The notes under the pieces were generated by a model. It was not told where the DNA came from. It worked only from the letters and a program-made list of their open reading frames with translations, and searched no databases. A DNA stretch of 32,000 nucleotides from Gemmata obscuriglobus (lineage in GTDB: Bacteria; Planctomycetota; Planctomycetia; Gemmatales; Gemmataceae): positions 6,150,001 through 6,182,000 of the forward strand of contig NZ_CP042911.1 in assembly GCF_008065095.1 (NCBI RefSeq), read 5' to 3'. Shown here in pieces: positions 12,019 through 32,000 of the stretch; position 1 is the stretch's first letter; every line of letters starts with the position of its first letter. The position numbers were made by a program, and so were the translations under genes.

Positions 12019-12099
12019 TCTCAAGTCGTGGGGTCACAAGTCGTAAAGTCGCCGGCCCTGTTCGATGGACGTTACAACTTGCGGCCTCACGACTTGAGA
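12019..12099. repeat. 15-bp inverted repeat (one G-T pair) in the thioesterase/prenyltransferase-like intercistronic gap
   Basis: 12019-12033 TCTCAAGTCGTGGGG pairs with 12085-12099 CCTCACGACTTGAGA. The AAGTCG(T) core occurs three times in direct orientation at 12023-12051 (AAGTCGT twice, then AAGTCGC). The segment is lower in GC than its flanks. Confidence 0.8.
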
Positions 12100-15486: not shown

Positions 15487-15544
15487 CGAACGAGGCGGCG
15501 TGAGTGCCGGGCAACGATGCCCGGCACTCACGCCGCCTCGTTCG
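15487..15544 (+). terminator. 27-bp perfect GC-rich hairpin with 4-nt loop (putative factor-independent terminator or REP-like element, no T-tract)
   Basis: 15487-15513 CGAACGAGGCGGCGTGAGTGCCGGGCA pairs base-for-base with 15518-15544. The loop is ACGA at 15514-15517. The hairpin starts 21 nt after the lipoprotein stop. Confidence 0.6.
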
Positions 15545-19329: not shown

Positions 19330-19614
19330 GTCCGACCTCCCGTCTCAGTCAGTGAGGAGTGAGGAATAAGGAAACCAACAACCTTGACCTTGCGAGGTTC
19401 GAAGCGCCCTTGGCCCCAACTCCTCACCTGTCCGCTCCTCACCGACTTCTGGCCCGCCCGATGGAGATCGGGCACCTCTTACAATCGGCCGAATCGGTCG
19501 ATCCGGTTGAATGCCTTCACCAGGAAATAACGACCAACTCGGCAAAGTCGCGAATATAAACCGGTTACGGACGCGCCGGTGCGGCGCTCTGGACCAGATT
19601 TTGAGGGGAAATCA

Positions 19615-22969: not shown

Positions 22970-23866
22970 GGCGCGCACCGCCGCGCCGAGCAACAGCTTC
23001 GCCTTCGCGACCTTGCTCACCTCGGGCCGGCGCGCCCACACGTCGTACCCCTGCCGCTCGATCGCGTCCAGGATCGCTTCGCCGCCGCGGATGAACAAAT
23101 CCACGTCCACGCGGGCCGCGCGCGGCAGCAGCGGAAGCAGTGCGGCCCCCCGCGCGAAGTAGCCGCGGGCGCGAGACACCTCGAACCGCATCAGTTCAAG
23201 GAACTGTGGCGTACACCGCCGCGCGTCGAGGTCTTCGTCGGAGTAGCCGAACCGCGCGCGGTCCTCCGCCGGGAGGTACACTCGGCCGATGTCGAGGTCG
23301 CGCGCCACGTCCTGCCAGAAGTTCGCCAACTGGAGCCCGGTGCAGACCTCGTCCGACAGCGCGGCCCGCTCGGCGTCGAAGCACTCGAACAGCCGCAGCA
23401 CGAGGTGCCCCACCGGGTTCGCGGAGTTCGCGCAGTAACCCGCCAGTTGCTCGAACGTGTCGTACCGCTTCACCCGCTGGTCCTGCTCGAACGCCACGAG
23501 CAGCGCGAGGAACGGGTCCGGTGGGATGTCGAAGCGCCGAACGGTCTCGCGGAGGGCGAGCATCACGGGATGGCGCGGCTCGCCCTCGTAACAAGACATC
23601 AGCTCCCGGCGCCACCACGCGATGAGGTCGAGAGCGGTTTGCCCGCCGGCGGTCTCGTCGGCGAGGTCGTCGGACCAGCGGCAGTAGGCGTACACCGCGT
23701 GGAAGTGTTTGACGAGGCGCCGCGGCAGCAGCAGCGACACGACGGTGAAGTTCTCGTAGTGCGACCGGGCGACGCCCGCGCAGTACGCGCGGGCGTCGCT
23801 GAGGCGTAGCGCGGCGGGGGCGCCCGGCCCCCACCGCGCCAGCTCGCGTGCAAAATCCCAGGTCAT
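22961..23866 (-). CDS. hpnC: Squalene synthase HpnC (squalene/phytoene synthase family)
   Basis: SHYENFTVVSLLLPRRLVKHFHAVYAYCRWSDDLADE carries the HpnC-type N-terminal motif and the first Asp-rich motif. Further matches are HPVMLAL, ANSANPVGHLVL and LQLANFWQDVARDLDIGRVYLPAED. The product is 301 aa. Confidence 0.85.
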   Translation of the reverse strand: MTWDFARELARWGPGAPAALRLSDARAYCAGVARSHYENFTVVSLLLPRRLVKHFHAVYAYCRWSDDLADETAGGQTALDLIAWWRRELMSCYEGEPRHPVMLALRETVRRFDIPPDPFLALLVAFEQDQRVKRYDTFEQLAGYCANSANPVGHLVLRLFECFDAERAALSDEVCTGLQLANFWQDVARDLDIGRVYLPAEDRARFGYSDEDLDARRCTPQFLELMRFEVSRARGYFARGAALLPLLPRAARVDVDLFIRGGEAILDAIERQGYDVWARRPEVSKVAKAKLLLGAAVRALV

Positions 23867-25185
23867 TACTTCTTCGCTTCCAAAATGCGGATCTGCGTAC
23901 AGAGCCCGAACTTCAGCCCGTCGAGGTCGTACTCAGTTTCGGCATAGAACGCCCGGAACCCCTTTTCGGGCGCGGTCACCGTGGCCGGGAACTTCGCGGC
24001 CTTATCCTCGGCCCAGCGGGCCTTGCGGAAGTCGCGCGTTTCGGCCTCCGCCACCCAGACCCGCATCGCGACGGGCTTGGCGGCGGAGGTCACTTCGAGC
24101 CGGCACACGCCGGCCTTCTCGTCACACACCCACGACAGCTCTGGCATCTTCTGGTCGAACACCTGGCAGCGGCCGAACGCGGCCAGCGTGGCCACCGCCC
24201 GCATCGGGAGCAGCTCCTTCTTCCCGTCGGCGTCGACCTCGCGCAGGTCGTGGCCGGCGTTGGGCACGTACAGCACCCACTTGTCGCCCTTCAGGTCGCC
24301 CCAGTAGGAGTTAAGCGCGTCCAGCGGCCAGTACGGGTCGTTCGCCCCGTTGATGATCATCTTCGGCAGCGTGAGCTTCTCGCGGTACACCCACGGGTCC
24401 ACCATCTGCCACAACTTCTTCGCCTCCGGCGTGTCCGGGATCGGCACCAGCTTGCGCTCGGTGTAGTCCTTGATCATCTCGCTCGGCTTGCCGAACGCCG
24501 TGACCTGGTTCTTCATCTGCACCGGCATGTTCAGGGTGTCGATGACGATGGGCGCGATGGCCTTCACGCGCGGGTCGCCGGTGGCGGCCGTCAGCCACGA
24601 GGTCCACCCGCGCTTGGACGCGCCGGTCACCACGAACGACTTCACCTCCGTCTTCCACTCCTCCTTCGCGAACGCCTGTAGCGCGTCCATCGCCCGGACG
24701 ACGCTCTTGACCATCGGGAACAGCAGCGGCCAGGAGCCGTCCTTCGTGTCGAGGTACCGCACGAACGTCTCGGCGATCAGCGTGTCCTCGACTTTGCCCT
24801 CGAACAGCGGCTGTTTCGGCACCCCGTACAGGAACGCGACCGGGGCTTTAACCCCCGTCGCGATCTGGAGCCCCAGGACGCCGGACCCGGCGTTGGGCCG
24901 GCCGCCCTGGTTCCATAGCACCATCGTGGCCTGCGGCTTCGCCCCCTTCGGCACGAACACCTGTAGCTTGTGCTCCCACTTGATGCTCTGCCACGTCTGC
25001 GACACGAGGTCGAGTTCGTACACGGTGCCGGTGTCCGTGTCCTTCTTGTCCGCGAGCTTCCAGGAAAACGAGTCGTCCTTCTTGGTCACGTAATCGACCA
25101 GTTCGGTGGGCGGGGCCGGCACGTCCGGGGCCGCGGCGCCGAGGGCCGGGGTGACGAGCAGACCGAACAGCGTGAGCAGTCGCAA
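23866..25185 (-). CDS. PhoPQ-activated pathogenicity-related (PqaA-type) family protein, secreted alpha/beta-fold
   Basis: It has a signal peptide (M)RLLTLFGLLVTPALGAAAP. The family hallmark is VVTGASKRGWTSWLTAA, followed by NGANDPYW and NAGHD. The start is TTG at 25185 with GGAGA 6 nt upstream. Its TAA stop overlaps the hpnC ATG by 1 nt (TAATG). Confidence 0.8.
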   Translation of the reverse strand: MRLLTLFGLLVTPALGAAAPDVPAPPTELVDYVTKKDDSFSWKLADKKDTDTGTVYELDLVSQTWQSIKWEHKLQVFVPKGAKPQATMVLWNQGGRPNAGSGVLGLQIATGVKAPVAFLYGVPKQPLFEGKVEDTLIAETFVRYLDTKDGSWPLLFPMVKSVVRAMDALQAFAKEEWKTEVKSFVVTGASKRGWTSWLTAATGDPRVKAIAPIVIDTLNMPVQMKNQVTAFGKPSEMIKDYTERKLVPIPDTPEAKKLWQMVDPWVYREKLTLPKMIINGANDPYWPLDALNSYWGDLKGDKWVLYVPNAGHDLREVDADGKKELLPMRAVATLAAFGRCQVFDQKMPELSWVCDEKAGVCRLEVTSAAKPVAMRVWVAEAETRDFRKARWAEDKAAKFPATVTAPEKGFRAFYAETEYDLDGLKFGLCTQIRILEAKK

Positions 25186-25213: not shown

Positions 25214-27220
25214 TCACTTCTTGGGCCGGGCGGGAACCGCCCACACCAATGCCGTTGTATCCAGGTGCCCGGAAATCAGCCTGGTGCCGTCCGGGGTGAA
25301 CCGCAGAACGTGCGTGAACCGGTTCCCTGGTCGCTCCCAACCGGTCACCGGCAGCCGGTACCCGCCGAACCACTCGGCGGTCGCCGCGTCGTAGAACTCG
25401 AGTTGATCGGCGGCGGCAACCGCCAGCGTCCGCCCGTCCGGCGACAGGGCCGCTGCGCCGTACTGAGCGATGGGCACCGTGGCGGTCACGCGCCAGATCG
25501 GCGTCGATACCACGACCGCCGCGTACTTCGCCACACCGTCCTCCATGCGGTGCGTCACCAGCGTGAACCACTTGCCGTCGTCCGAGAAGTGCCCCGACAG
25601 CAGGAGAGAATGCCCGGGCACTTTGGCGTCGGCGAGGAGGTTCTTGTCCGGGGAGCCGAGGGCCACCACGCCGCCCCGTCCGTACCCCACTTCGGCAATA
25701 AATTGCGCTCCAGGAGAGAGTTCTCCCCAGTCGCTTTGCCGCGGGTCGGTCAGGCGGGCCACGTTCACGCGCGCCGCGGTCGCGGTGTCCCACGTCGTCA
25801 AGAGGCCCGAATCATCCGCGGTTGCCCCGCGGCTCAGGCCGTGAAGCGTTTTCCCATCGGCAGACAGCCGAATTGACACCACGCCCCCTTGTCCGCCCTC
25901 CTTCAGATCGACAACGAACCGACCCGCGATCTTGCCGGCCAGCGCGTCATATCGCGTGACCTCTCCCGGCCCTGGCCCCGGCAGGTACAGATGCTTCCCG
26001 TTGGGCGCAAACACCAGATACGGAGCGCTCGACCATTGCGCGGCCGTGCGCCACACCTCTTTCCCGGTCGCAGTATCCCAGACGCACACCCGGCTATCGA
26101 GGCCGCGAGTCGCGATCAACTTGCCGTCGGGCGATACGCCGAGACCGTTCACGTAACCGTTATGACCATCGTCCTGCGTGCGGAAAAGCGGTTTCCCCGT
26201 CGCCGCGTCCCACCTCATGAGCATGTGCCCGTTGTGCGCGACCAGTACCTTGCCATCAGGAGTGAGCCGGGCCGGAACGTCTTGAAGACCGCCGCCGGAC
26301 GCAACGACGTCGAACGCGCGCACCGCTTGACCCGCAGCCGGGTCCCACCAAGTGATCCCCTTTAAATCGCCCACGAGCAGCGTTTTGCCGTCCGGCGCAT
26401 AGGCGGCCCACCGCCCACCAGGTGGCCCTTTGAAGCCGTCCCGCAACTTGCCCGTGAGCGGATCGATCGCGCGCCACTCGCTTTTGCCACCGTCCAGATA
26501 AACGCGTGCGACGAGTACCTGCCCCGCCGAATCGAGTGCGAATGTGCCCGCAAGCCAGTCGCTCAGTTGGTGATCCGCAAGCGTTCGCCCTGAGGCCGTG
26601 TCCCAAAGGACAACCTTTCTGCCGACGACGCCGGCCGCCCGCTTCCCGTCACCGGAGAAGTTGACGGCTTCGAAGTACCCATCCCCGCCGCCCAGCGCCG
26701 TCGCCTGCCCGGACTGGATGTCACACAGAAGTACGGAGGAGACGCCCGAACTTGCGGTGGTGAGGATCAGCTTCGAGCCGTCCGGGGAGAAGCGGAACAG
26801 CCGCGGGCGACCGGCCGCGAACTCGGCCAGGCACTTCGGCTTCGACTCACCATCGACCGGTGCCTCCCAGACGGACAGTTTGTCTTGAGAACAGACCGCG
26901 ACCAGCCGACCGTCGGGCGACACCTGTGGGTAGCTGGCGATCGCAACGGGTTCGGGAAGCGGCAGGAACAGCGGCTCCTCGCTGGATTCCCGGGTCGCAC
27001 GCCAGCGCCGCACCTCGGCCAGCATTCCGGCGGTAACGACAGTGCCGTCCTTCTCGATCCCGAATCCCGAGATCGGCGCCCGACCCCGGACCGTGCCGAA
27101 CCGCATCCGCGCCCCGTCCGGCAGCGGGTCACCGTACCGGTCCTTCTTCCCCGGCGGATCGGCCGCCGGTACAGCACCGCACAGCACGGCAACGCCGATG
27201 AACACACCGAATACCCGCAT
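25214..27220 (-). CDS. Secreted WD40/beta-propeller repeat protein
   Basis: From ATG 27220 there is a signal peptide MRVFGVFIGVAVLCGAVPA followed by the DRYGDPLPDGARMRFGT motif. Many blades follow (VSPDGRLVAVCSQDKLSVWE, FSPDGSKLILT, YAPDGKTLLVGDLKGITWWD, VSPDGKLIATRGLDSRVCVWD, LSPDGRTLAVAAADQLEFYD, FTPDGTRLISGHLDTTALVW). The upper part of track ORF 25214..27898 is out of frame over the hydrolase gene. Confidence 0.85.
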   Translation of the reverse strand: MRVFGVFIGVAVLCGAVPAADPPGKKDRYGDPLPDGARMRFGTVRGRAPISGFGIEKDGTVVTAGMLAEVRRWRATRESSEEPLFLPLPEPVAIASYPQVSPDGRLVAVCSQDKLSVWEAPVDGESKPKCLAEFAAGRPRLFRFSPDGSKLILTTASSGVSSVLLCDIQSGQATALGGGDGYFEAVNFSGDGKRAAGVVGRKVVLWDTASGRTLADHQLSDWLAGTFALDSAGQVLVARVYLDGGKSEWRAIDPLTGKLRDGFKGPPGGRWAAYAPDGKTLLVGDLKGITWWDPAAGQAVRAFDVVASGGGLQDVPARLTPDGKVLVAHNGHMLMRWDAATGKPLFRTQDDGHNGYVNGLGVSPDGKLIATRGLDSRVCVWDTATGKEVWRTAAQWSSAPYLVFAPNGKHLYLPGPGPGEVTRYDALAGKIAGRFVVDLKEGGQGGVVSIRLSADGKTLHGLSRGATADDSGLLTTWDTATAARVNVARLTDPRQSDWGELSPGAQFIAEVGYGRGGVVALGSPDKNLLADAKVPGHSLLLSGHFSDDGKWFTLVTHRMEDGVAKYAAVVVSTPIWRVTATVPIAQYGAAALSPDGRTLAVAAADQLEFYDAATAEWFGGYRLPVTGWERPGNRFTHVLRFTPDGTRLISGHLDTTALVWAVPARPKK

Positions 27221-27225
27221 ACTGG

Positions 27226-28011
27226 TCACCCCGAAAGGAGCCGCGCGAAGAACGCGCCCGCGGCGCCGGCGATGTCGTCCTTGTGGGCGGTGAGCCGGTG
27301 ATCGCCGTCCTTGATGAGCCGCAGTTCCACACGAGGGTACCCGACGTTGCGCGCGAAGAACAGGCTGTCCGAATCGGGGACCACGTCGTCCGCCATCCCG
27401 TGGAACAGGAGCGCCGGCGTTGCCCAGTCTTTCACCAGATCTTCGGGGCGGAAGCGGGCGCGTTCGTCCATCAGCCCGATGCCGATTTCCGTCTCCAGCC
27501 ACTGGTTCTTCACGGCCAACCGGCCGGTGCGGGCCCAGGCGATCTGCTCCTCGGGCGTCAGGCGGCTCCACCGACGCTCCAAGAATAGAAACGCCGGGGC
27601 CAGGAACACGCAGCCCACAACAGACACCGGATTTTGCTTCGCGAACCACGCCGCCGCGAACCCGCCCATGCTCGACCCGATCAGCCCCAGTTTCGTGTGC
27701 CCGCGGCCGGCGAGCCACTCGCGAACGAGTGCGAGGTCGTCGAGCAACCCGGAGCACGTCAGGTCTACGATTCGCCCCGGCGACGCGCCGTGCCCACGGA
27801 AGTCGAACGCCGCGAACGCCCACCCCCGGCGCTCGCACTCGGCGCGGACCGCCTCGGCCTTCTCGCCCCCCCGGTGGCTCCCGAACCCGTGGACCCACAG
27901 CACCGCGAAATCGGCCCGCGCCCCGGGCTGATAACTGCCGGCCAGCGCACCAGCCGGAAGCGGAACCGATACGATTGACGTGGGCACAATGCTCCTCTCA
28001 CGTTGGCGCAA
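27226..28011 (-). CDS. Alpha/beta-fold hydrolase
   Basis: It has an HGFG oxyanion-type motif (VLWVHGFGSH) and the nucleophile elbow GSSMGG. The Asp lies in FHGMADDVVP and the His in DGDHRL. The start is uncertain: the track uses TTG 28011, but GTG 27987 is preceded by GAGAGGAG and may be the real start. The stop is 5 nt from the WD40 start. Confidence 0.85.
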   Translation of the reverse strand: MRQRERSIVPTSIVSVPLPAGALAGSYQPGARADFAVLWVHGFGSHRGGEKAEAVRAECERRGWAFAAFDFRGHGASPGRIVDLTCSGLLDDLALVREWLAGRGHTKLGLIGSSMGGFAAAWFAKQNPVSVVGCVFLAPAFLFLERRWSRLTPEEQIAWARTGRLAVKNQWLETEIGIGLMDERARFRPEDLVKDWATPALLFHGMADDVVPDSDSLFFARNVGYPRVELRLIKDGDHRLTAHKDDIAGAAGAFFARLLSG

Positions 28012-28159
28012 ACTCGTCCATTCGGACCATCGGTCCCCTCGACAGTCCGCTCATTGTGCGTCACAAGTGAAGACACGACTCGCTCGACCGCTGGGACCCC
28101 TTCTCAGGGTTCATGTGGCCGAGCCGCGGCGTTCGACCGTGACGCGCACGGTTCGTTCT

Positions 28160-28291
28160 ATTCCCTTCAAGACCAGCCCACTGGGCAAGTTGGATCCGGT
28201 CCCGCCGGAGTGGAACGCGATTAGCAAGCACGAGTTCGACGTGCCGCAGGTCGGGACGGACAAAGCGAACTTCGACATCGTCAGCAAAGGC
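28160..28291 (+). pseudogene. Remnant of a DUF1559-partner lipoprotein gene (C-terminal fragment only)
   Basis: The translation IPFKTSPLGKLDPVPPEWNAISKHEFDVPQVGTDKANFDIVSKG resembles the C-terminus of the intact lipoprotein at 15059..15466 (LIPAKYNTKSDLTFDVPTSGTDKADFVLTK). FDVP..GTDKA.F is shared. Upstream in frame there is no signal peptide or plausible start. Confidence 0.35.
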
Positions 28292-28633
28292 AGGCCGGAA
28301 AGTAACTGCGGCGCGGCAGAAGCGCGGCAAGGCGGTGCCATTTTGGAGCGTCCCTTGTGCGGCGCCGGGGCGCGGGTATGATGGTGGCAGGTCGGTGCAG
28401 CCGACGACCGATTTCGACGCACGGACCGACCTTTTCTGACCGCCGCCGCGCTCGGCACTCGCCGCGCGGCCCACGACCGCCGCCTCTCACGACGACGGCC
28501 GCAGTGACAACCGCGCCGCGCGGGCCGACTGGCCACGCGACACTGCTCCGACGCACCTTCGGGCGCATCGCCGCGCCCGGCCCGACCGACGGCCCGCGAA
28601 CCGTCGACCTTTTCACCTTTTCAGGGACCTGTC

Positions 28634-28816
28634 ATGGACTTCCGACCCCTCGCCGAAGCGGAGCGCCGCCAGCTCCTCACCGCGCTCCGCGGGCACGCCG
28701 ATCGCGGCACCGCGCTGCTGATCGACCCCGAGGACACCAGCTTCGCGGGCACCGCCGACGACGTGCCGGACGAGCAGGTGATCACCGCCGTGAAGTCGGT
28801 CCCCGTGCACTACTGA
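28634..28816 (+). CDS. Small acidic hypothetical protein (60 aa), first gene of the E2/E1-like cassette
   Basis: Almost every codon in ATG 28634..TGA 28816 ends in G or C, a strong coding signature in this genome. No alternative in-frame start exists between the upstream stop at 28505 and 28634. I recognise no family. Confidence 0.55.
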   Translation: MDFRPLAEAERRQLLTALRGHADRGTALLIDPEDTSFAGTADDVPDEQVITAVKSVPVHY

Positions 28817-28825
28817 AACGTGCGG

Positions 28826-28901
28826 GTTCGGAACGCGCAACGCGGGATCAAAGACTTCGTCATTAGTTCTGTGTTTTCATTCCGAGTTCCGCGTTCCGAA
28901 C
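28826..28901. promoter_or_regulatory. 12-bp perfect inverted repeat flanking a lower-GC 52-nt segment between the small ORF and the E2-like gene
   Basis: 28826-28837 GTTCGGAACGCG pairs with 28890-28901 CGCGTTCCGAAC. Each arm contains a GTTC-N-GAAC mini-palindrome. Related TTCCGA/TTCCCGAAC copies occur at 28880-28917. Confidence 0.5.
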
Positions 28902-28917
28902 TTCGCATTCCCGAACC

Positions 28918-29343
28918 ATGGGACTTCTCGACTCCGAACCGGGCAAGCGGCGGTTGCTGGCCGTTGAACTGCCGGCCATCGAGCGCTACAACGCGGGCCG
29001 CGCCACCGAGTACCGCATCGCGGTCACGAAGGTCGGCGGCGGGCTGACGCTGTCGTACTGTCTCAAGCCGTGCCACAACCCGTACGCGCTCGAAACGCGG
29101 CTCCTGTCCAGCTACCCGATTATGGCGCCCGAAACCCGGGTGCTGACGCCGCTGAAGCACTGCCCGCACCTGCTCGAAGGGCAGACGGTTTGTCTGTGGC
29201 GCCAGGGGTCCACGCGGGCGACCAGCCGCTGGGACGCGAGCCAGTTCACGTGCGTGTTCGCGGTGGTCGCGGCGTGGCGGTGGCTGCTGTGCTACGAGCT
29301 GTGGCACGAAACCGGCGAGTGGCCTCTGCCCGAAGCGAAATGA
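28918..29343 (+). CDS. E2/UBC-like protein (prokaryotic E2 candidate), 141 aa
   Basis: The N-terminal helix RRLLAVELPAIERY resembles the UBC helix-1 pattern. YPIMAPETRVLTPLKHCPHLLEGQTVCLW aligns with the UBC core consensus YPfkPPkvkFxTkiyHPNIxxxGxICL. The candidate catalytic Cys is C92 (TGT 29191-29193). Trp-rich C-terminal helices follow. Third-position GC is high. Confidence 0.6.
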   Translation: MGLLDSEPGKRRLLAVELPAIERYNAGRATEYRIAVTKVGGGLTLSYCLKPCHNPYALETRLLSSYPIMAPETRVLTPLKHCPHLLEGQTVCLWRQGSTRATSRWDASQFTCVFAVVAAWRWLLCYELWHETGEWPLPEAK

Positions 29344-29415
29344 GCGCGTTTCGTTAAATCCGGCGCTCCGCGCGTCGTACTCACTGGTGAGTACCCGCAA
29401 CTGTAAGGAGCCGCC

Positions 29416-30030
29416 ATGCGCCGCCCGAACGTGAACCCCTTACTGGCGCTCGCCGCGTGCGCGGTGGTCGGCACCGGCGGGTGCGATCCTGCGCCGGTCG
29501 TCGATCTGCCGGCCGCCGTCGACGAGTTCGAGGCCAACCGCGCCTCCGTTCAGTACCGGATGGAGGCGGTCGACGCCCGTCTCGCGGCCTGGGATGTGCC
29601 CGACGACCGGACCGCCCAGGAGCAGTTCGCGGCGGAGTGGAAGGAGGAATGGGACGACATCGAGCGCGAGGTGAAAAAGCTGAAGAAGCAACTCACGCGA
29701 CTCAGCCGGTCGTTCGACCGGCAGTTCGCGCGCATGCAGCGCGTGGCGCGCACGATCGACTCGCCGCAGGTGCGGGCCGAGGAGCTGAGCGAGAACGCGG
29801 AACTCCAGCGTCGGTGGCTCACGACCGTCGCCGAGGCCCACACCAATTTCAAGAAGATGGACGAGCAGGTCCGCGCCGCCAGGGACTTTCACAAGACGTT
29901 CCGGCTCGCTGTGATGCGCGGACGGGCAGAGGCCAAGCTCGCCGAGGTGCGGGGCCTGAGCCAGCAGGTCAAGGGCACGGCCGCGGAACTCGAGAAGGTC
30001 ACAACCGAGGGTCGCGCCTTGATTCGTTGA
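29416..30030 (+). CDS. Coiled-coil lipoprotein (hypothetical)
   Basis: AAGGAG lies 5 nt before the ATG at 29416. The signal and lipobox are MRRPNVNPLLALAACAVVGTGGC. The remainder is charged and heptad-like (EWKEEWDDIEREVKKLKKQLTRLSRSFDRQFARMQ...). Confidence 0.65.
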   Translation: MRRPNVNPLLALAACAVVGTGGCDPAPVVDLPAAVDEFEANRASVQYRMEAVDARLAAWDVPDDRTAQEQFAAEWKEEWDDIEREVKKLKKQLTRLSRSFDRQFARMQRVARTIDSPQVRAEELSENAELQRRWLTTVAEAHTNFKKMDEQVRAARDFHKTFRLAVMRGRAEAKLAEVRGLSQQVKGTAAELEKVTTEGRALIR

Positions 30031-30044
30031 GGCCGAAGGGAAGC

Positions 30045-30860
30045 ATGAGTCACGTTTTTCAGTTGGGCGCCGGCAGCGGCGGGATGGCGGTGCTCGACCT
30101 GATCGCGCGCGATCCCGCGGTCACCCGGGTCACGCTCATCGAACCGGACGTGTACGCCGCGCACAACGTCCACCGGCACCTCTTCCCCCCCGCCGCAGTC
30201 GGCCGGCTGAAGGCCGATCTGGCAACCGAGTGGCTGCGGGCGCTACGCCCCGACCTCCAGGTCACGGCGCTCGCTTCCGATATCACCGATCCGACGCGCC
30301 AAGCCGAGTTCGCCGCTCTTGCCGCCGAGTGCGACGTGGGCGTGTGCGCGGCCGACAACGAGGCCGCAAAGTTCGCGTTCGACGCGCTGATGCGGACCAC
30401 GGGAAAGCCGTGGACCCTCGGCGAGGTGCTGAGCGGGGGCATCGGCGGGTGGGTCCACCGGTTCGTGCCCAGCGGGGCGTGTTACGGGTGCGTCGCAAGC
30501 CATTTAAAGCGCGAGGTGACCGAGCAACCGGCCGGCCCGCCGCCCGACTACAGCAACCCGAACGGCACACAACCGGAAACGACGATCCCCGCCGGCAAAG
30601 CGAGCATCGCGACCGTCGCCGGTCTACACGCCCTCGTAACGCTGGGGGAAATCGCCTCGCGCCCGGCGATCGACTTCACCAGCATGTTGTTCTCGCTCCA
30701 GACGGTCACTGGAGTATTTGACGCGCCGTTCCGCGCGCACCGAATGAAGGTCCCGCGCTCGCCCACCTGCCTCACCTGCGGCAACGCCAAACCGCTCCCC
30801 GCCGGAGACGCACTTGACGCCGCACTGGCTGACGCGCTGGGCCGTCTGGGCGCGAACTAA
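30045..30860 (+). CDS. ThiF/MoeB/E1-like adenylyltransferase (271 aa)
   Basis: From ATG 30045 the product reads MSHVFQLGAGSGGMAVLDL (nucleotide-binding Gly loop). ThiF-type matches are IEPDVYAAHNVHRHLF (D..sNl.Rq equivalent), GRLKADL and CAADNEAAKF (catalytic Asp region). Two zinc CxxC pairs lie at C146/C149 and C242/C245. The remainder of track ORF 29457..30860 is out of frame over the lipoprotein gene. Confidence 0.85.
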   Translation: MSHVFQLGAGSGGMAVLDLIARDPAVTRVTLIEPDVYAAHNVHRHLFPPAAVGRLKADLATEWLRALRPDLQVTALASDITDPTRQAEFAALAAECDVGVCAADNEAAKFAFDALMRTTGKPWTLGEVLSGGIGGWVHRFVPSGACYGCVASHLKREVTEQPAGPPPDYSNPNGTQPETTIPAGKASIATVAGLHALVTLGEIASRPAIDFTSMLFSLQTVTGVFDAPFRAHRMKVPRSPTCLTCGNAKPLPAGDALDAALADALGRLGAN

Positions 30861-30894
30861 GCTGCTCCGCGGTGGGCGCCCGCTCCTGACGGGC

Positions 30895-32000
30895 GTGACC
30901 GTCGGGTTCGAGCGCGCCGGCGCCACGCGCTGGGAGTCGCCGGTGCCGTGGACCGCCGACGCGGTGGCGCTGGACGTCGGGTTCCGCGGCCCGGGGCGCG
31001 CGCGCCCCAAGTCGGAGTTTGCGCTCCGCACGCCGAGCGCCACGTTCCCCGCCGATACGATTCGCCCCGGTGGCGACGACCGGTTCCACGTCACGTTCCG
31101 GTTCCCGGTGCCGCCGGACTCAGTGTCCGCCGACCTACTGTGGCGCGGCCGCGTGGTCGAGACGCTCCTTGTGCCCGTGTTGGCCCCGACCCAGTTCCTC
31201 ACCGGCCTGACGCTCGCCGACGCGACCGTCGCGGTGCGGTTCGGTGGGACCACCGCGCCGGCGTCCGCGGTCTGTCAGCACCAGTACGACGGGCTCCTCG
31301 CCGCCGCCCTGCTCCGCAGCCCGACCGGGCTGGCACCGCTCGCGGAACTGGGGGTGCGGGTGGTGTTCCACGACTCCCGCTCGGGCACCGAGTACCCCGC
31401 AACGGTCGCGCTGGGGGCGGCGCAGCTCGCACGGTCGGAAGCGCTGGTGACGGCCGTATGTCCGGAACACCCGCAGCCGGCCGGTCCGTGGTGGGTGGTG
31501 TGGCACGCCGGCGACCGCACCCTCGCGGCGCAGCGGCTCCAGGTGGTGCCCGAAGAGAAGTTCGAACTGGGTGTGCGGGTGCTCGAAATCCGCTTCGCGC
31601 TACTCGACGCGAGCGGCACCGTTCACACCGCAAAGCAGCCGCCCGTGCTGAGCGACGCGGGCAAGATCGGACCGTGCTTCGTGCTCGCCGGGGGCGAGCC
31701 CGGGGCGGTCGGCGTGTGCCGGTTCGAGATCGTGGCGTTCGCAAGCGCCGGCCCGGACCCGAACATCCAACACACGGCCGAAGCGGTCATCACGGACGGA
31801 CCGATGGTGTTCGCCCCGGTGCTGTTCGACGTGTCCGCGCTCGCGCGCGTGAGCGGGTTCGAGTTGCGGTTGGGCGGGCGCGTCTTGGGCGTGGCGTCGC
31901 TGCGGCCGGTGCCCGCGGCGCGGGTCAACGGCGAGGGCGGGTTCGTGCCGCCCCCGGACTTCACCTGGTCGCAGGCGGCCGACGACGAACTCGCGGACCG
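30895..32000 (+). CDS. Large hypothetical protein with ~110-125-aa internal repeats (3' end beyond window)
   Basis: It is absent from the supplied track because there is no stop in the window. Frame 1 is open from 30748 to base 32000 with very high third-position GC. Start candidates are GTG 30895 and TTG 30814; there is no in-frame ATG before 31804. Three modules end in similar strings: LLWRGRVVETLLVPVL, VWHAGDRTLAAQRLQVVP and LRLGGRVLGVASLRPVP. Confidence 0.6.
   Translation, partial: MTVGFERAGATRWESPVPWTADAVALDVGFRGPGRARPKSEFALRTPSATFPADTIRPGGDDRFHVTFRFPVPPDSVSADLLWRGRVVETLLVPVLAPTQFLTGLTLADATVAVRFGGTTAPASAVCQHQYDGLLAAALLRSPTGLAPLAELGVRVVFHDSRSGTEYPATVALGAAQLARSEALVTAVCPEHPQPAGPWWVVWHAGDRTLAAQRLQVVPEEKFELGVRVLEIRFALLDASGTVHTAKQPPVLSDAGKIGPCFVLAGGEPGAVGVCRFEIVAFASAGPDPNIQHTAEAVITDGPMVFAPVLFDVSALARVSGFELRLGGRVLGVASLRPVPAARVNGEGGFVPPPDFTWSQAADDELAD

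Follow-up and report, generated by a model that had tools for sequence, protein, structure and literature searches.

Near the end of a 32-kb stretch of the Gemmata obscuriglobus chromosome, referred to here as the window, lies a run of genes that encodes a candidate E1/E2 conjugation system. Four open reading frames (ORFs) on the same strand, separated by gaps of 101, 72, and 14 nt, were found in an ORF listing exactly as an earlier note on this DNA had placed them. They are followed by the gene for a protein with three immunoglobulin (Ig)-like domains, hereafter called Ig3, which extends beyond the window. The coordinates of these genes and of the features that accompany them are given in Table 1. 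As described below, the operon very probably encodes a functional E1/E2 conjugation system, in most relatives with a JAB peptidase, that is related to the cyclic oligonucleotide-based antiphage signaling system (CBASS) and whose partner proteins are not nucleotide cyclases.

Table 1. Features of the Gemmata obscuriglobus locus (window positions) and the basis for each assignment
Feature	Positions	Strand	Basis
Apparent conserved leader, non-coding	28355..28633	+	blastn, alignment
60-amino acid acidic protein gene	28634..28816	+	ORF; family conservation
Intercistronic RNA hairpin, 60-amino acid gene/E2	28820..28908	+	folding, inverted repeat, Tandem Repeats Finder (TRF)
Predicted E2 (ubiquitin-conjugating (UBC)-like), CBASS E2 family, 141 amino acids	28918..29343	+	PADLOC, PF26395
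Coiled-coil lipoprotein-like gene, 204 amino acids	29416..30030	+	ORF; distribution across loci
E1-like adenylyltransferase, 271 amino acids	30045..30860	+	ThiF, PADLOC Cap2
Ig3 protein, 401 amino acids	30814..32000, stop 32017-32019 beyond window	+	Logan contig L001, homologues, AlphaFold2 (AF2)
Probable decayed ORF fragment, outside the system	28115..28381	+	likeness to relatives' gene

Enzymes and partner proteins of the operon

The 141-amino acid protein had been called E2-like in the earlier note, and profile searches support this assignment. The protein matches ten PADLOC models, nine of which are CBASS E2 models (1.3e-8 to 4.7e-4). The tenth is a cyclase model (PDLC00816; 2.2e-4), which is matched by the E2 itself and only at model positions 483 to 540 of 542, the C-terminal end. 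Precomputed Pfam annotation assigns the protein and all 120 homologues listed to the E2-CBASS family PF26395; a scan with a local copy of Pfam, perhaps one that does not include PF26395, returned no match. The length of 141 amino acids is the same in all 64 complete copies from related loci, among which C92, C125, and K10 are invariant and K141, the last residue of the C-terminal sequence ...WPLPEAK, is present in 61. The core motif reads H81-C-P-H84 ... C92-L-W ... W105, and C92 is predicted to be the catalytic Cys. An hhalign alignment with UbcH5B, although of weak significance (E 0.016, probability 2.8%), pairs C92 with the catalytic C85, HCPH with HPN, YP with YP, and W105 with W93.

The E1 assignment was likewise confirmed. 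The 271-amino acid protein matches the Pfam ThiF family above its cut-off (3.3e-19), and its best full-length matches are the PADLOC Cap2 "E1-E2" models (8e-21), the E1 half of which aligns with residues 2 to 233. Searches of the PDB returned MoeB (2.5e-9), UBA5, and MccB, with the MccB alignment spanning the full length. Residues that map to the nucleotide and Mg site of MoeB are conserved, namely GAGSGG (G8-G13), R44, K56, and D104-N105 within AADNE, and a CxxC...CxxC zinc site formed by C146/C149 and C242/C245 is invariant. The protein contains no Cys between the two CxxC pairs, where the catalytic Cys of ThiF/Cap2-type enzymes is expected (PMC10097602). Because it begins only five residues before GAGSGG, it also lacks the N-terminal peptide-clamp domain of MccB, which resembles the recognition element (RRE) of ribosomally synthesized and post-translationally modified peptide (RiPP) pathways. 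Its C-terminus conforms to LDxALxDALxRLG plus one or two further residues, whether or not the locus carries a JAB gene.

The fifth gene does not begin about 35 nt past the E1 gene, as had been thought. Logan contig L001, which matches the window without a difference over 5289 nt and supplies the sequence past its end, shows that the gene terminates at position 32019, 19 nt beyond the window. Its start is a TTG at position 30814, inside the 3' end of the E1 gene, which creates an overlap of 47 nt. This start was chosen because homologues of about 400 amino acids align from residue 1 and conserve R22, a residue encoded after the E1 stop, and because no other in-frame start codon occurs between this TTG and a GTG at 30895. 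The called E1 and Ig3 genes overlap by about 44 to 47 nt wherever the junction was read. Nucleotides 30814 to 30860 encode both the E1 tail, LD(V/A)ALxxALxRLG, and, one base out of frame, the N-terminus of Ig3, MxxWxxRWxxWA; in most lineages, the ATG of the Ig3 gene derives from the Asp-Val codons of E1. Because the two termini share the same DNA, conservation in one frame constrains the other.

An AF2 model of Ig3, computed from a 41-sequence alignment with the homologue P0001 (95% identical) as the first row, is confident (predicted local distance difference test (pLDDT) score, 87.4). It comprises a short, W-rich N-terminal helix, three beta-sandwiches (residues of about 24-120, 133-245, and 255-362), a low-confidence linker (363-386), and a C-terminal helix (387-400). 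Both the model and Foldseek searches identify the sandwiches as Ig-like domains, and Foldseek matched only generic Ig-repeat proteins (invasin, filamin, FdeC, SbsC, and phage Big-1 proteins). The description of this gene product in the earlier note as a repeat protein is therefore correct at the level of the fold. It does not extend to the sequence, as the three domains lack mutual similarity (hhalign probability <2%) and TRF detects no tandem repeat in the gene. Ig3 has no family match in Pfam, NCBIfam, PADLOC, or PHROGs. The absence of a Pfam match, the Ig sandwiches of the model, and the generic Foldseek matches exclude two candidate identities for this protein, a polyubiquitin or other series of ubiquitin-like protein (Ubl) repeats and a diverged cGAS/DncV-like nucleotidyltransferase (CD-NTase).

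A profile search of 1.84 billion representatives recovered 413 clusters of the Ig3 family, almost all of them with proteins of about 400 amino acids. Conservation is highest in the linker and the C-terminal helix, RPVPAA..AEGGF.PPPDF.WS.AAEDELADRLxRL, despite their predicted flexibility, with a majority fraction of 0.76 to 0.77 versus 0.61 to 0.66 in the Ig domains. We count this conservation in favor of a model in which the Ig3 tail is the conjugated end. The helix ends with a conserved ELxDRLxRL, which is followed by a variable tail, and the window protein terminates as ...RLRRLQ. In relatives, a Gly usually occurs one to three residues past RL, although not universally.

An amphipathic C-terminal pattern, L-x3-L-x-R-L-G, is shared by E1 and the Ig3 proteins of the Gemmata clade, as exemplified by LDDALARLG in the E1 of the SH-PL17 locus and LADRLKRLG in the Ig3 of locus L011. 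This pattern, which is encoded in the window at 30816-30857 for E1 and at about 31975-32016 for Ig3, is reminiscent of the LRLRGG terminus of ubiquitin, and its presence in both proteins suggests a common docking site or pseudo-substrate behavior. Separately, one divergent Ig3 homologue (P0275, on metagenome contig JGI 3300047160) stands alone and is arranged tail-to-tail with a GH3-family gene that is 7 nt away. GH3 proteins are acyl-adenylate-forming amido synthetases. The GH3 gene is thus a second carboxylate-activating neighbor of the Ig3 family, although the arrangement may be a coincidence.

The 60-amino acid acidic protein is invariant at both of its ends, MDFRP... and ...SVP[C/S/V]HY (SVPVHY in the window), and the C-terminal HY is never extended. 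Its gene is always located directly upstream of the E2 gene. Nearly all of the 251 clusters of this family are called at 60 amino acids; a few are longer and seem to reflect the choice of an upstream start. Consistent with this length, the gene was detected by tblastn in 65 loci, and the match extends over 60 codons in nearly all of them (that in L075 is partial). The protein has no match in Pfam, NCBIfam, PADLOC, or PHROG, and a profile search of the PDB returned a single spurious match to a designed repeat protein. Its AF2 model is of low confidence (pLDDT 58.5) and contains two helices with no beta-grasp. We therefore rejected a beta-grasp Ubl as its identity, given this model and the lack of family matches.

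Conservation and distribution in the Gemmatales

To place the operon in context, it was compared by tblastn with 83 related loci, all of which are from Gemmatales, and a scan was made of 185,579 species, each represented by one genome. Relatives were found in 119 species, all belonging to Gemmatales-type lineages as named in the genome records. The genera concerned are Gemmata, Frigoriglobus, Urbifossiella, Fimbriiglobus, Limnoglobus, and Zavarzinella, and a few metagenome-assembled genomes bear other names. The E1 gene lies directly upstream of the Ig3 gene in 74 of 74 loci, the E2 and 60-amino acid genes occur together in 57 of 60, and a JAB gene of ~270 codons precedes the 60-amino acid gene in 39 of 57. 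These counts indicate that the usual operon is JAB-60aa-E2-E1-Ig3, and they bear out the proposal of the earlier note that the E2 and E1 genes belong together. The core genes are kept in order across 57 to 74 loci at identities of 34 to 90%. Median identity to the window protein is 74% for E2 (69-90% across relatives), 68% for the 60-amino acid protein, 59% for E1, and 39% for Ig3, which is the fastest-evolving component.

The operon can also be found split into two halves. In Limnoglobus roseus, JAB-60aa-E2 is followed by unrelated genes, with no E1 or Ig3 gene at that site, and loci L064 and L072 carry the E1-Ig3 pair alone.

The JAB protein of the relatives matches Cap3-type models (1.5e-7) and matches BilC only at 0.0087, and it retains the motif E...HxHx7Sx2D of an intact JAMM peptidase. 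Neither tblastn nor a hidden Markov model (HMM) of the relatives' JAB applied to the six-frame translation detected JAB in the 32-kb window, and the same searches rule out a decayed JAB gene in the 620-nt gap upstream of the operon. The window indeed contains no JAB and no beta-grasp protein, as was noticed earlier. JAB is nevertheless part of the ancestral operon in most relatives, and the cassette composition given in the earlier note was wrong in this respect. The clade of Gemmata and Frigoriglobus that includes the window forms a single branch of the Ig3 tree without an adjacent JAB gene, and by this comparison the Gemmata clade is one that has lost adjacent JAB.

The length of the Ig3 tail differs between loci with and without JAB. 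It is longer where JAB is present (median of 6 residues after RL, range 3-11), and 40 of the 46 tails from such loci, counted by eye, consist of RL-hydrophobic-(x)-G followed by further residues (e.g., MGGGS, LEGKGKGE, and MRGEE). In JAB-less loci, the median is 2 residues (range 1-4, with one exception), and the tails are G, GG, SG, QG, Q, or S. Only the tail of Ig3 tracks JAB in this manner, because the E1 tail and the end of the 60-amino acid protein are the same with or without it.

In contrast to the core genes, the 204-amino acid lipoprotein gene occurs only in G. obscuriglobus contigs and in Gemmata sp. JC717 and is absent from all 83 other loci. Its inclusion in the cassette by the earlier note was therefore mistaken; this distribution excludes it as a system component and identifies it as a lineage-specific insert in the E2-E1 spacer, which measures 701 nt in the window with the insert included. 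Family searches with its product gave only generic coiled-coil matches below the cut-offs. A lipoprotein-like signal peptide with a lipobox (LAAC; MRRPNVNPLLALAA/C) was read by eye only. Given the short spacers on either side (72 and 14 nt), the insert is probably cotranscribed with the operon.

The genes that flank the operon are common to several genera, with SQS_PSY, PhoPQ_related, and alpha/beta hydrolase genes upstream and M50 peptidase, Aminotran_5, and CTP_transf genes downstream. In the Ig3 tree, loci cluster according to genus, and searches of both viral contigs and plasmids revealed no relatives. The GC content of the locus is typical for the window. These findings rule out mobile or accessory DNA, which had been suggested for this locus. 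The core, syntenic position counts against the flavor of a "defense island" in the original interpretation, and an order-wide, syntenic, and non-mobile distribution is the pattern expected of a vertically inherited core operon.

No other gene is a conserved neighbor in the window or in the 83 loci, including genes for a cyclase or CD-NTase, an effector, or ThiS/MoaD, and no rhodanese, cysteine desulfurase, or RiPP tailoring genes are conserved near the operon. The earlier note had raised the possibility that the E1 gene would prove to be a neighbor of sulfur-carrier genes; no ThiS/MoaD, beta-grasp Ubl, CD-NTase, or effector gene lies beside E1/E2 in any locus.

Relationship to known systems and a possible mechanism

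The closest relatives of the enzymes are those of type II CBASS (PMC10097602; bioRxiv 10.1101/2022.03.31.486616), wherein Cap2 attaches the CD-NTase C-terminus first to a Cys and then to a Lys and Cap3 reverses the reaction (PMC10097602). As in that system, the E1 scores best against Cap2 and the relatives' JAB against Cap3, there is no beta-grasp Ubl, JAB belongs to the ancestral operon, and the likely substrate is large, is not a Ubl, and has a flexible tail at its C-terminus. The two systems differ in that Cap2 is an E1-E2 fusion, whereas E2 and E1 are encoded by separate genes in all Gemmatales loci. CBASS includes a CD-NTase and an effector, whereas here neither is present and there is an additional 60-amino acid protein. 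The conjugated C-terminal residue in CBASS must be Gly or Ala (PMC10097602), whereas the terminal residue of Ig3, the candidate substrate, is not fixed as either, and the 60-amino acid protein of the window ends in Tyr. The E1 lacks a Cys between its CxxC pairs, and the Gemmata clade has lost adjacent JAB. Finally, type II CBASS is patchy and mobile, whereas inheritance in the Gemmatales is vertical, with the genes at one fixed place in the chromosome across the order.

A second point of comparison is E2-CBASS, in which a stand-alone E2 processes and conjugates the cGAS-like enzyme CdnG. The E2 is recruited by a helix-containing motif at the C-terminus of CdnG, and the acceptor is a Lys within the C-terminal tail of this E2 (PMC12948482; bioRxiv 10.1101/2022.05.25.493364). 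The 141-amino acid protein belongs to the same PF26395 family, Ig3 offers a partner with a conserved tail that contains a C-terminal helix, and K141 at the end of the E2 (61 of 64 copies) recalls Lys159, the acceptor located in the SmE2 C-terminal tail. In contrast, the Gemmatales operon has an E1 and usually a JAB, both of which are absent from E2-CBASS, and it has neither CdnG nor an effector. Its E2 is also shorter (141 amino acids). The absence of a cyclase and an effector, together with the encoding of E1 and E2 by separate genes, places the operon outside both CBASS types.

Similarities to other E1/E2 systems are more limited. The Bil (BilABCD) operons and the 6d/6e Ubl-E2-JAB-E1 operons (PMC1779556; PMC10557695) also consist of separate genes and place a small protein beside JAB and E2. 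However, no beta-grasp is predicted for the 60-amino acid protein (in a low-confidence AF2 model), which ends in His-Tyr rather than Gly. Moreover, the Gemmata E1 and E2 match no Bil models, JAB matches BilC only poorly, and the Gemmatales system is not mobile and lacks polyUbl, the RWD-like inactive E2, and the metal-binding protein. Bub (PMC11601596) likewise combines diverged bacterial E1 and E2 enzymes with unusual partners, but its intermediates are oxyesters (Ser), its E1 is fused to a peptidase, and it includes a Ubl and a serine protease, whereas here there is an invariant E2 Cys and a JAMM peptidase. Thus, the lack of a beta-grasp Ubl sets the operon apart from Bil and 6d/6e, and the Cys and JAMM chemistry sets it apart from Bub. 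With ThiF/MoeB-ThiS/MoaD and with MccB, it shares the E1 adenylation core, a four-Cys zinc site, and an E1 gene that is tightly coupled to the gene for its presumed substrate. The operon belongs with neither the sulfur-carrier nor the MccB systems, as it lacks a ThiS/MoaD-like protein, sulfur-transfer genes, and the MccB clamp and has E2 and JAB.

Full-text literature searches yielded no prior description of the Gemmatales operon, and planctomycetes are not mentioned in a 2006 survey of prokaryotic E1/E2 operons. The view of the earlier note that this composition fits no recognized E1/E2 system therefore stands for the set of genes, no such combination having been found described in those searches. 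It does not stand for the enzymes, which are relatives of those of CBASS (Cap2, Cap3, and the E2 of E2-CBASS).

Our best reading of these data is that the module descends from the regulatory enzymes of type II CBASS, with Cap2 split into E2 and E1 and with Cap3 retained as JAB, and that it was cut off from cyclic-nucleotide signaling. By the same reading, the operon is now a vertically inherited, core chromosomal system throughout the Gemmatales that was repurposed to a lineage-wide cellular role. From the computed features (protein families, residues, gene linkage, the Ig fold, tails, and distribution), we infer the chemical steps, the conjugated end, the target, and the cellular role that are outlined in the remainder of this section.

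In this mechanism, E1 and Ig3 would be synthesized together, as the overlap of their genes suggests translational coupling. In the presence of ATP, E1 would adenylate the conserved, flexible C-terminal tail of Ig3 (...ELxDRLxRL-x(G)), much as Cap2 does with the C-terminus of a CD-NTase. The acyl group would then move to Cys92 of E2, and because E1 has no Cys between its CxxC pairs, this transfer would probably proceed directly from the adenylate. The acyl group would end on an amine, which may be provided by a Lys of a target protein or of E2 itself. Where JAB is present, it could trim the variable residues past the tail and reverse the conjugation, and in the Gemmata clade, from which adjacent JAB was lost, the tail would already be encoded in its short form. 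The 60-amino acid protein is a candidate obligate partner of the E2/JAB half of the system and might act as a cofactor, adaptor, or regulator.

We favor Ig3 as the substrate because of the unbroken coupling of its gene to that of E1, its conserved and flexible tail, the relationship between tail length and JAB, and the analogy to Cap2 and the CBASS E2. That the tail of Ig3 is the end activated and conjugated is nevertheless a tentative assignment, to which we give somewhat less than an even chance. Several observations weigh against it. The pattern linking tail length to JAB derives essentially from a single loss event, with two singletons in addition, one of which (L034) deviates from it. The last Ig3 residue varies among Q, S, G, and M within the JAB-less clade, and six of the 46 JAB-bearing tails have no nearby Gly. 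In the window, where no JAB is nearby, Ig3 ends in Gln and not in the Gly or Ala used in CBASS. The most divergent Ig3 homologues, whose contexts were read from gene lists, stand by themselves with no adjoining E1, yet they keep the C-terminal helix, which suggests that the helix may have a function independent of E1. The E1 C-terminus carries the L-x3-L-x-R-L-G pattern as well, and the C-terminal helices of E1 and Ig3 could be docking elements rather than reactive ends. In addition, sequence and profile searches of the PDB with E2 gave no match, and its UBC fold is predicted from profile homology to CBASS E2 proteins rather than from a structural model.

The main rival to the Ig3 tail is the 60-amino acid protein, which could itself be the modifier, although we judge this to be unlikely. 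The protein would be a largely disordered, non-beta-grasp tag resembling Pup but using E1/E2 chemistry, wherein E1 would adenylate the ...HY terminus, Cys92 of E2 would carry the tag, and JAB would remove it. Ig3 would then be the main target or an E3-like scaffold that docks through its C-terminal helix, and the similar helix of E1 would be an E2-docking element. This proposal accounts for the fixed length of the protein in nearly all 251 clusters and for an HY end that is invariant and never extended. The location of its gene after JAB and before E2 resembles that in Ubl-first operons, and the gene remains beside those two genes in split operons. The protein is also better conserved than E1 or Ig3 (median identity of 68% versus 59% and 39%), the conserved hairpin just past its gene could raise its expression over that of the enzymes, and the variable terminal residue of Ig3 is unlike that of an E1 substrate. 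However, the AF2 model of this protein shows two helices rather than a beta-grasp, and we know of no precedent for a C-terminal Tyr in E1/E2/JAMM chemistry. Because the whole protein is conserved, its conserved end is not specifically informative. Furthermore, E1 is never found apart from Ig3 and yet is separable from the 60-amino acid gene, and the loss of JAB altered the Ig3 tail while leaving the 60-amino acid protein as before.

Whichever of these two ends is conjugated, there is a broader possibility, which we consider conceivable but doubtful. The Gemmatales, among them the model planctomycete G. obscuriglobus, may have assembled a housekeeping protein-tagging pathway from E1, E2, and JAB enzymes of the CBASS type and fixed it in their core genome, with a modifier that is not a beta-grasp protein. 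This modifier would be the 60-amino acid protein, or it would be Ig3, linked through its tail to other proteins, to itself (forming covalent Ig polymers), or to lipid.

An antiviral function of the Bil or CBASS type is improbable. In this case, Ig3 or the 60-amino acid protein would be conjugated upon infection to phage structural proteins, perhaps through binding of the Ig domains to the phage, and particle assembly would be blocked. All three enzymes match models of defense systems best in PADLOC, Ig3 is the fastest-evolving component, and Ig-like domains are common on phage particles (the Foldseek matches being generic only). Work by Hör et al. in 2024 is also said to have found that Bil systems tag phage tail proteins. 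Against such a role, the operon is order-wide, occupies the same chromosomal position across genera, and has a gene tree that follows genus. Its E2 is 69 to 90% identical among relatives and always 141 amino acids long, unlike genes engaged in an arms race. There is no effector and no neighboring defense gene, relatives are absent from the viral contigs and plasmids searched, and no PHROG matches were obtained.

We find it very unlikely that no conjugation takes place, in which case E1 would be an enzyme of the ThiF/MoeB or MccB type that makes a thiocarboxylate carrier or modifies the C-terminus of Ig3 or the 60-amino acid protein, with E2 serving as an inactive scaffold. This alternative draws on the alignment of E1 with MoeB, ThiF, and MccB (over the full length for MccB), on a weak match to the docking domain of thiazole/oxazole-modified microcins (TOMM; 0.096), and on the few genomes in which E1-Ig3 has no adjacent E2. 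It is difficult to reconcile with the absence of conserved ThiS/MoaD, rhodanese, cysteine desulfurase, or RiPP tailoring genes nearby, with an E1 that starts at GxGxxG without the MccB peptide clamp, with an invariant Cys92 in a UBC-like motif of E2, and with a JAB isopeptidase in the ancestral operon and an E1 that scores best against Cap2.

A decaying CBASS remnant or a chance adjacency of genes with no current function is hardly credible: the window lacks JAB, has a foreign lipoprotein gene between E2 and E1, and has a decayed fragment upstream, but this reading is already contradicted by the conservation data, in which the four core ORFs are intact with their predicted active-site residues and fixed lengths, gene order is conserved across 57 to 74 loci at 34 to 90% identity, and the leader and the intercistronic hairpin are conserved.

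To our knowledge, all experimentally characterized bacterial E1/E2/JAB systems (CBASS type II, E2-CBASS, Bil, and Bub) are mobile antiviral modules that act on a nucleotide cyclase or a beta-grasp Ubl. The Gemmatales system appears to be a domesticated member of the same enzyme lineage, with new partners (the 60-amino acid protein and Ig3) and an unusual distribution that is vertical and order-wide. If the proposal of a housekeeping pathway is true, it would be the first vertically inherited, non-defense E1-E2-JAB conjugation system in bacteria and would bring a new class of modifier. The conjugated end, be it the Ig3 tail or the His-Tyr end of the 60-amino acid protein, could once identified define such a class or a new kind of E1 substrate. 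The system would also serve as a natural test of how a conjugation machine of the defense type turns into a cellular regulator, which bears on the origin of ubiquitin signaling. G. obscuriglobus has been studied for its unusual cell biology and is a tractable host, for which genetic tools exist.

Non-coding elements and neighboring genes

The DNA upstream of the operon had been described as a decayed gene fragment with non-coding sequence, and this description is correct only in part. The fragment is probably a decayed remnant, as judged from residues 22 to 58 (about 35 central residues), which resemble part of a gene of 146 to 153 codons that is located after DUF1559 (N_methyl/SBP_bac_10) genes in related loci L004 (3696-4157), L019, and L023. 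In contrast, the ~280 nt immediately before the 60-amino acid gene are apparently a conserved, structured leader in the JAB-less clade. A sigma-70-like promoter, TTGTGC (28355-28360) and TATGAT (28377-28382) with a 16-nt spacer, was identified by eye and was not listed by a consensus scan. It is followed by a 5' untranslated region of approximately 250 nt that contains an invariant ACGACGACGGCCGC..GACAACC block and two hairpins. By blastn, the leader is 74 to 89% identical to sequence in the corresponding place of other Gemmata loci and of Frigoriglobus loci. In an alignment of seven sequences (the window, L087, L006, and L010-L013), the indels are not multiples of three and each of the two hairpins has one compensatory change, and the structure is tentative at this depth. 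A CCUC in the leader is predicted to pair with GAGG just before the start codon and may do so. No known RNA family from Rfam was found in positions 27900 to 32000.

A strong hairpin is also predicted in the spacer between the 60-amino acid and E2 genes, with arms at 28826-28852 and 28875-28901 (minimum free energy -46.7 kcal/mol, z = -4.7). Its 3' arm is composed of 7-nt repeats (TTCCGAG/TTCCGCG/TTCCGAA), for which TRF reports periods of 7 and 14, and the two arms correspond to inverted repeat I5. Hairpins with arms of at least 20 nt are present in this spacer in 43 of 65 related loci (L003-L086), with typical z values of -6 to -12, and a hairpin is present in the E2-E1 spacer in 27 related loci. 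The arm sequences are unrelated between lineages, and the arms often consist of a 7-nt unit repeated three to five times in tandem (e.g., four copies of GAACGAT, GAAGGAT, or TCATTAG). Across about 1 Mb of loci, 27 period-7 hairpins were found, of which 16 are in the 60aa-E2 spacer and five in the E2-E1 spacer. The others include one artifact (an N run in L073), one at the edge of the 60aa-E2 spacer, and a few elsewhere. The latter indicate that this type of element is genome-wide yet strongly enriched in the operon. Processing, stabilization, or translational attenuation of the transcript are possible roles of the intercistronic hairpins.

The large WD40/beta-propeller gene on the minus strand of the window (25214-27898) lies between a PhoPQ_related gene (23866-25185) and an alpha/beta hydrolase gene (27226-28011). 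The latter two genes are directly adjacent in SH-PL17 and L004, and the WD40/beta-propeller gene appears to be a lineage-specific insertion beside the operon. Further long intergenic hairpins occur in the window at 2224-2345, 12019-12099, 15487-15544, and 19352-19427. The last of these has a GTGAGGA repeat in its arm, and the set is consistent with a genome-wide class of hairpins in Gemmata.

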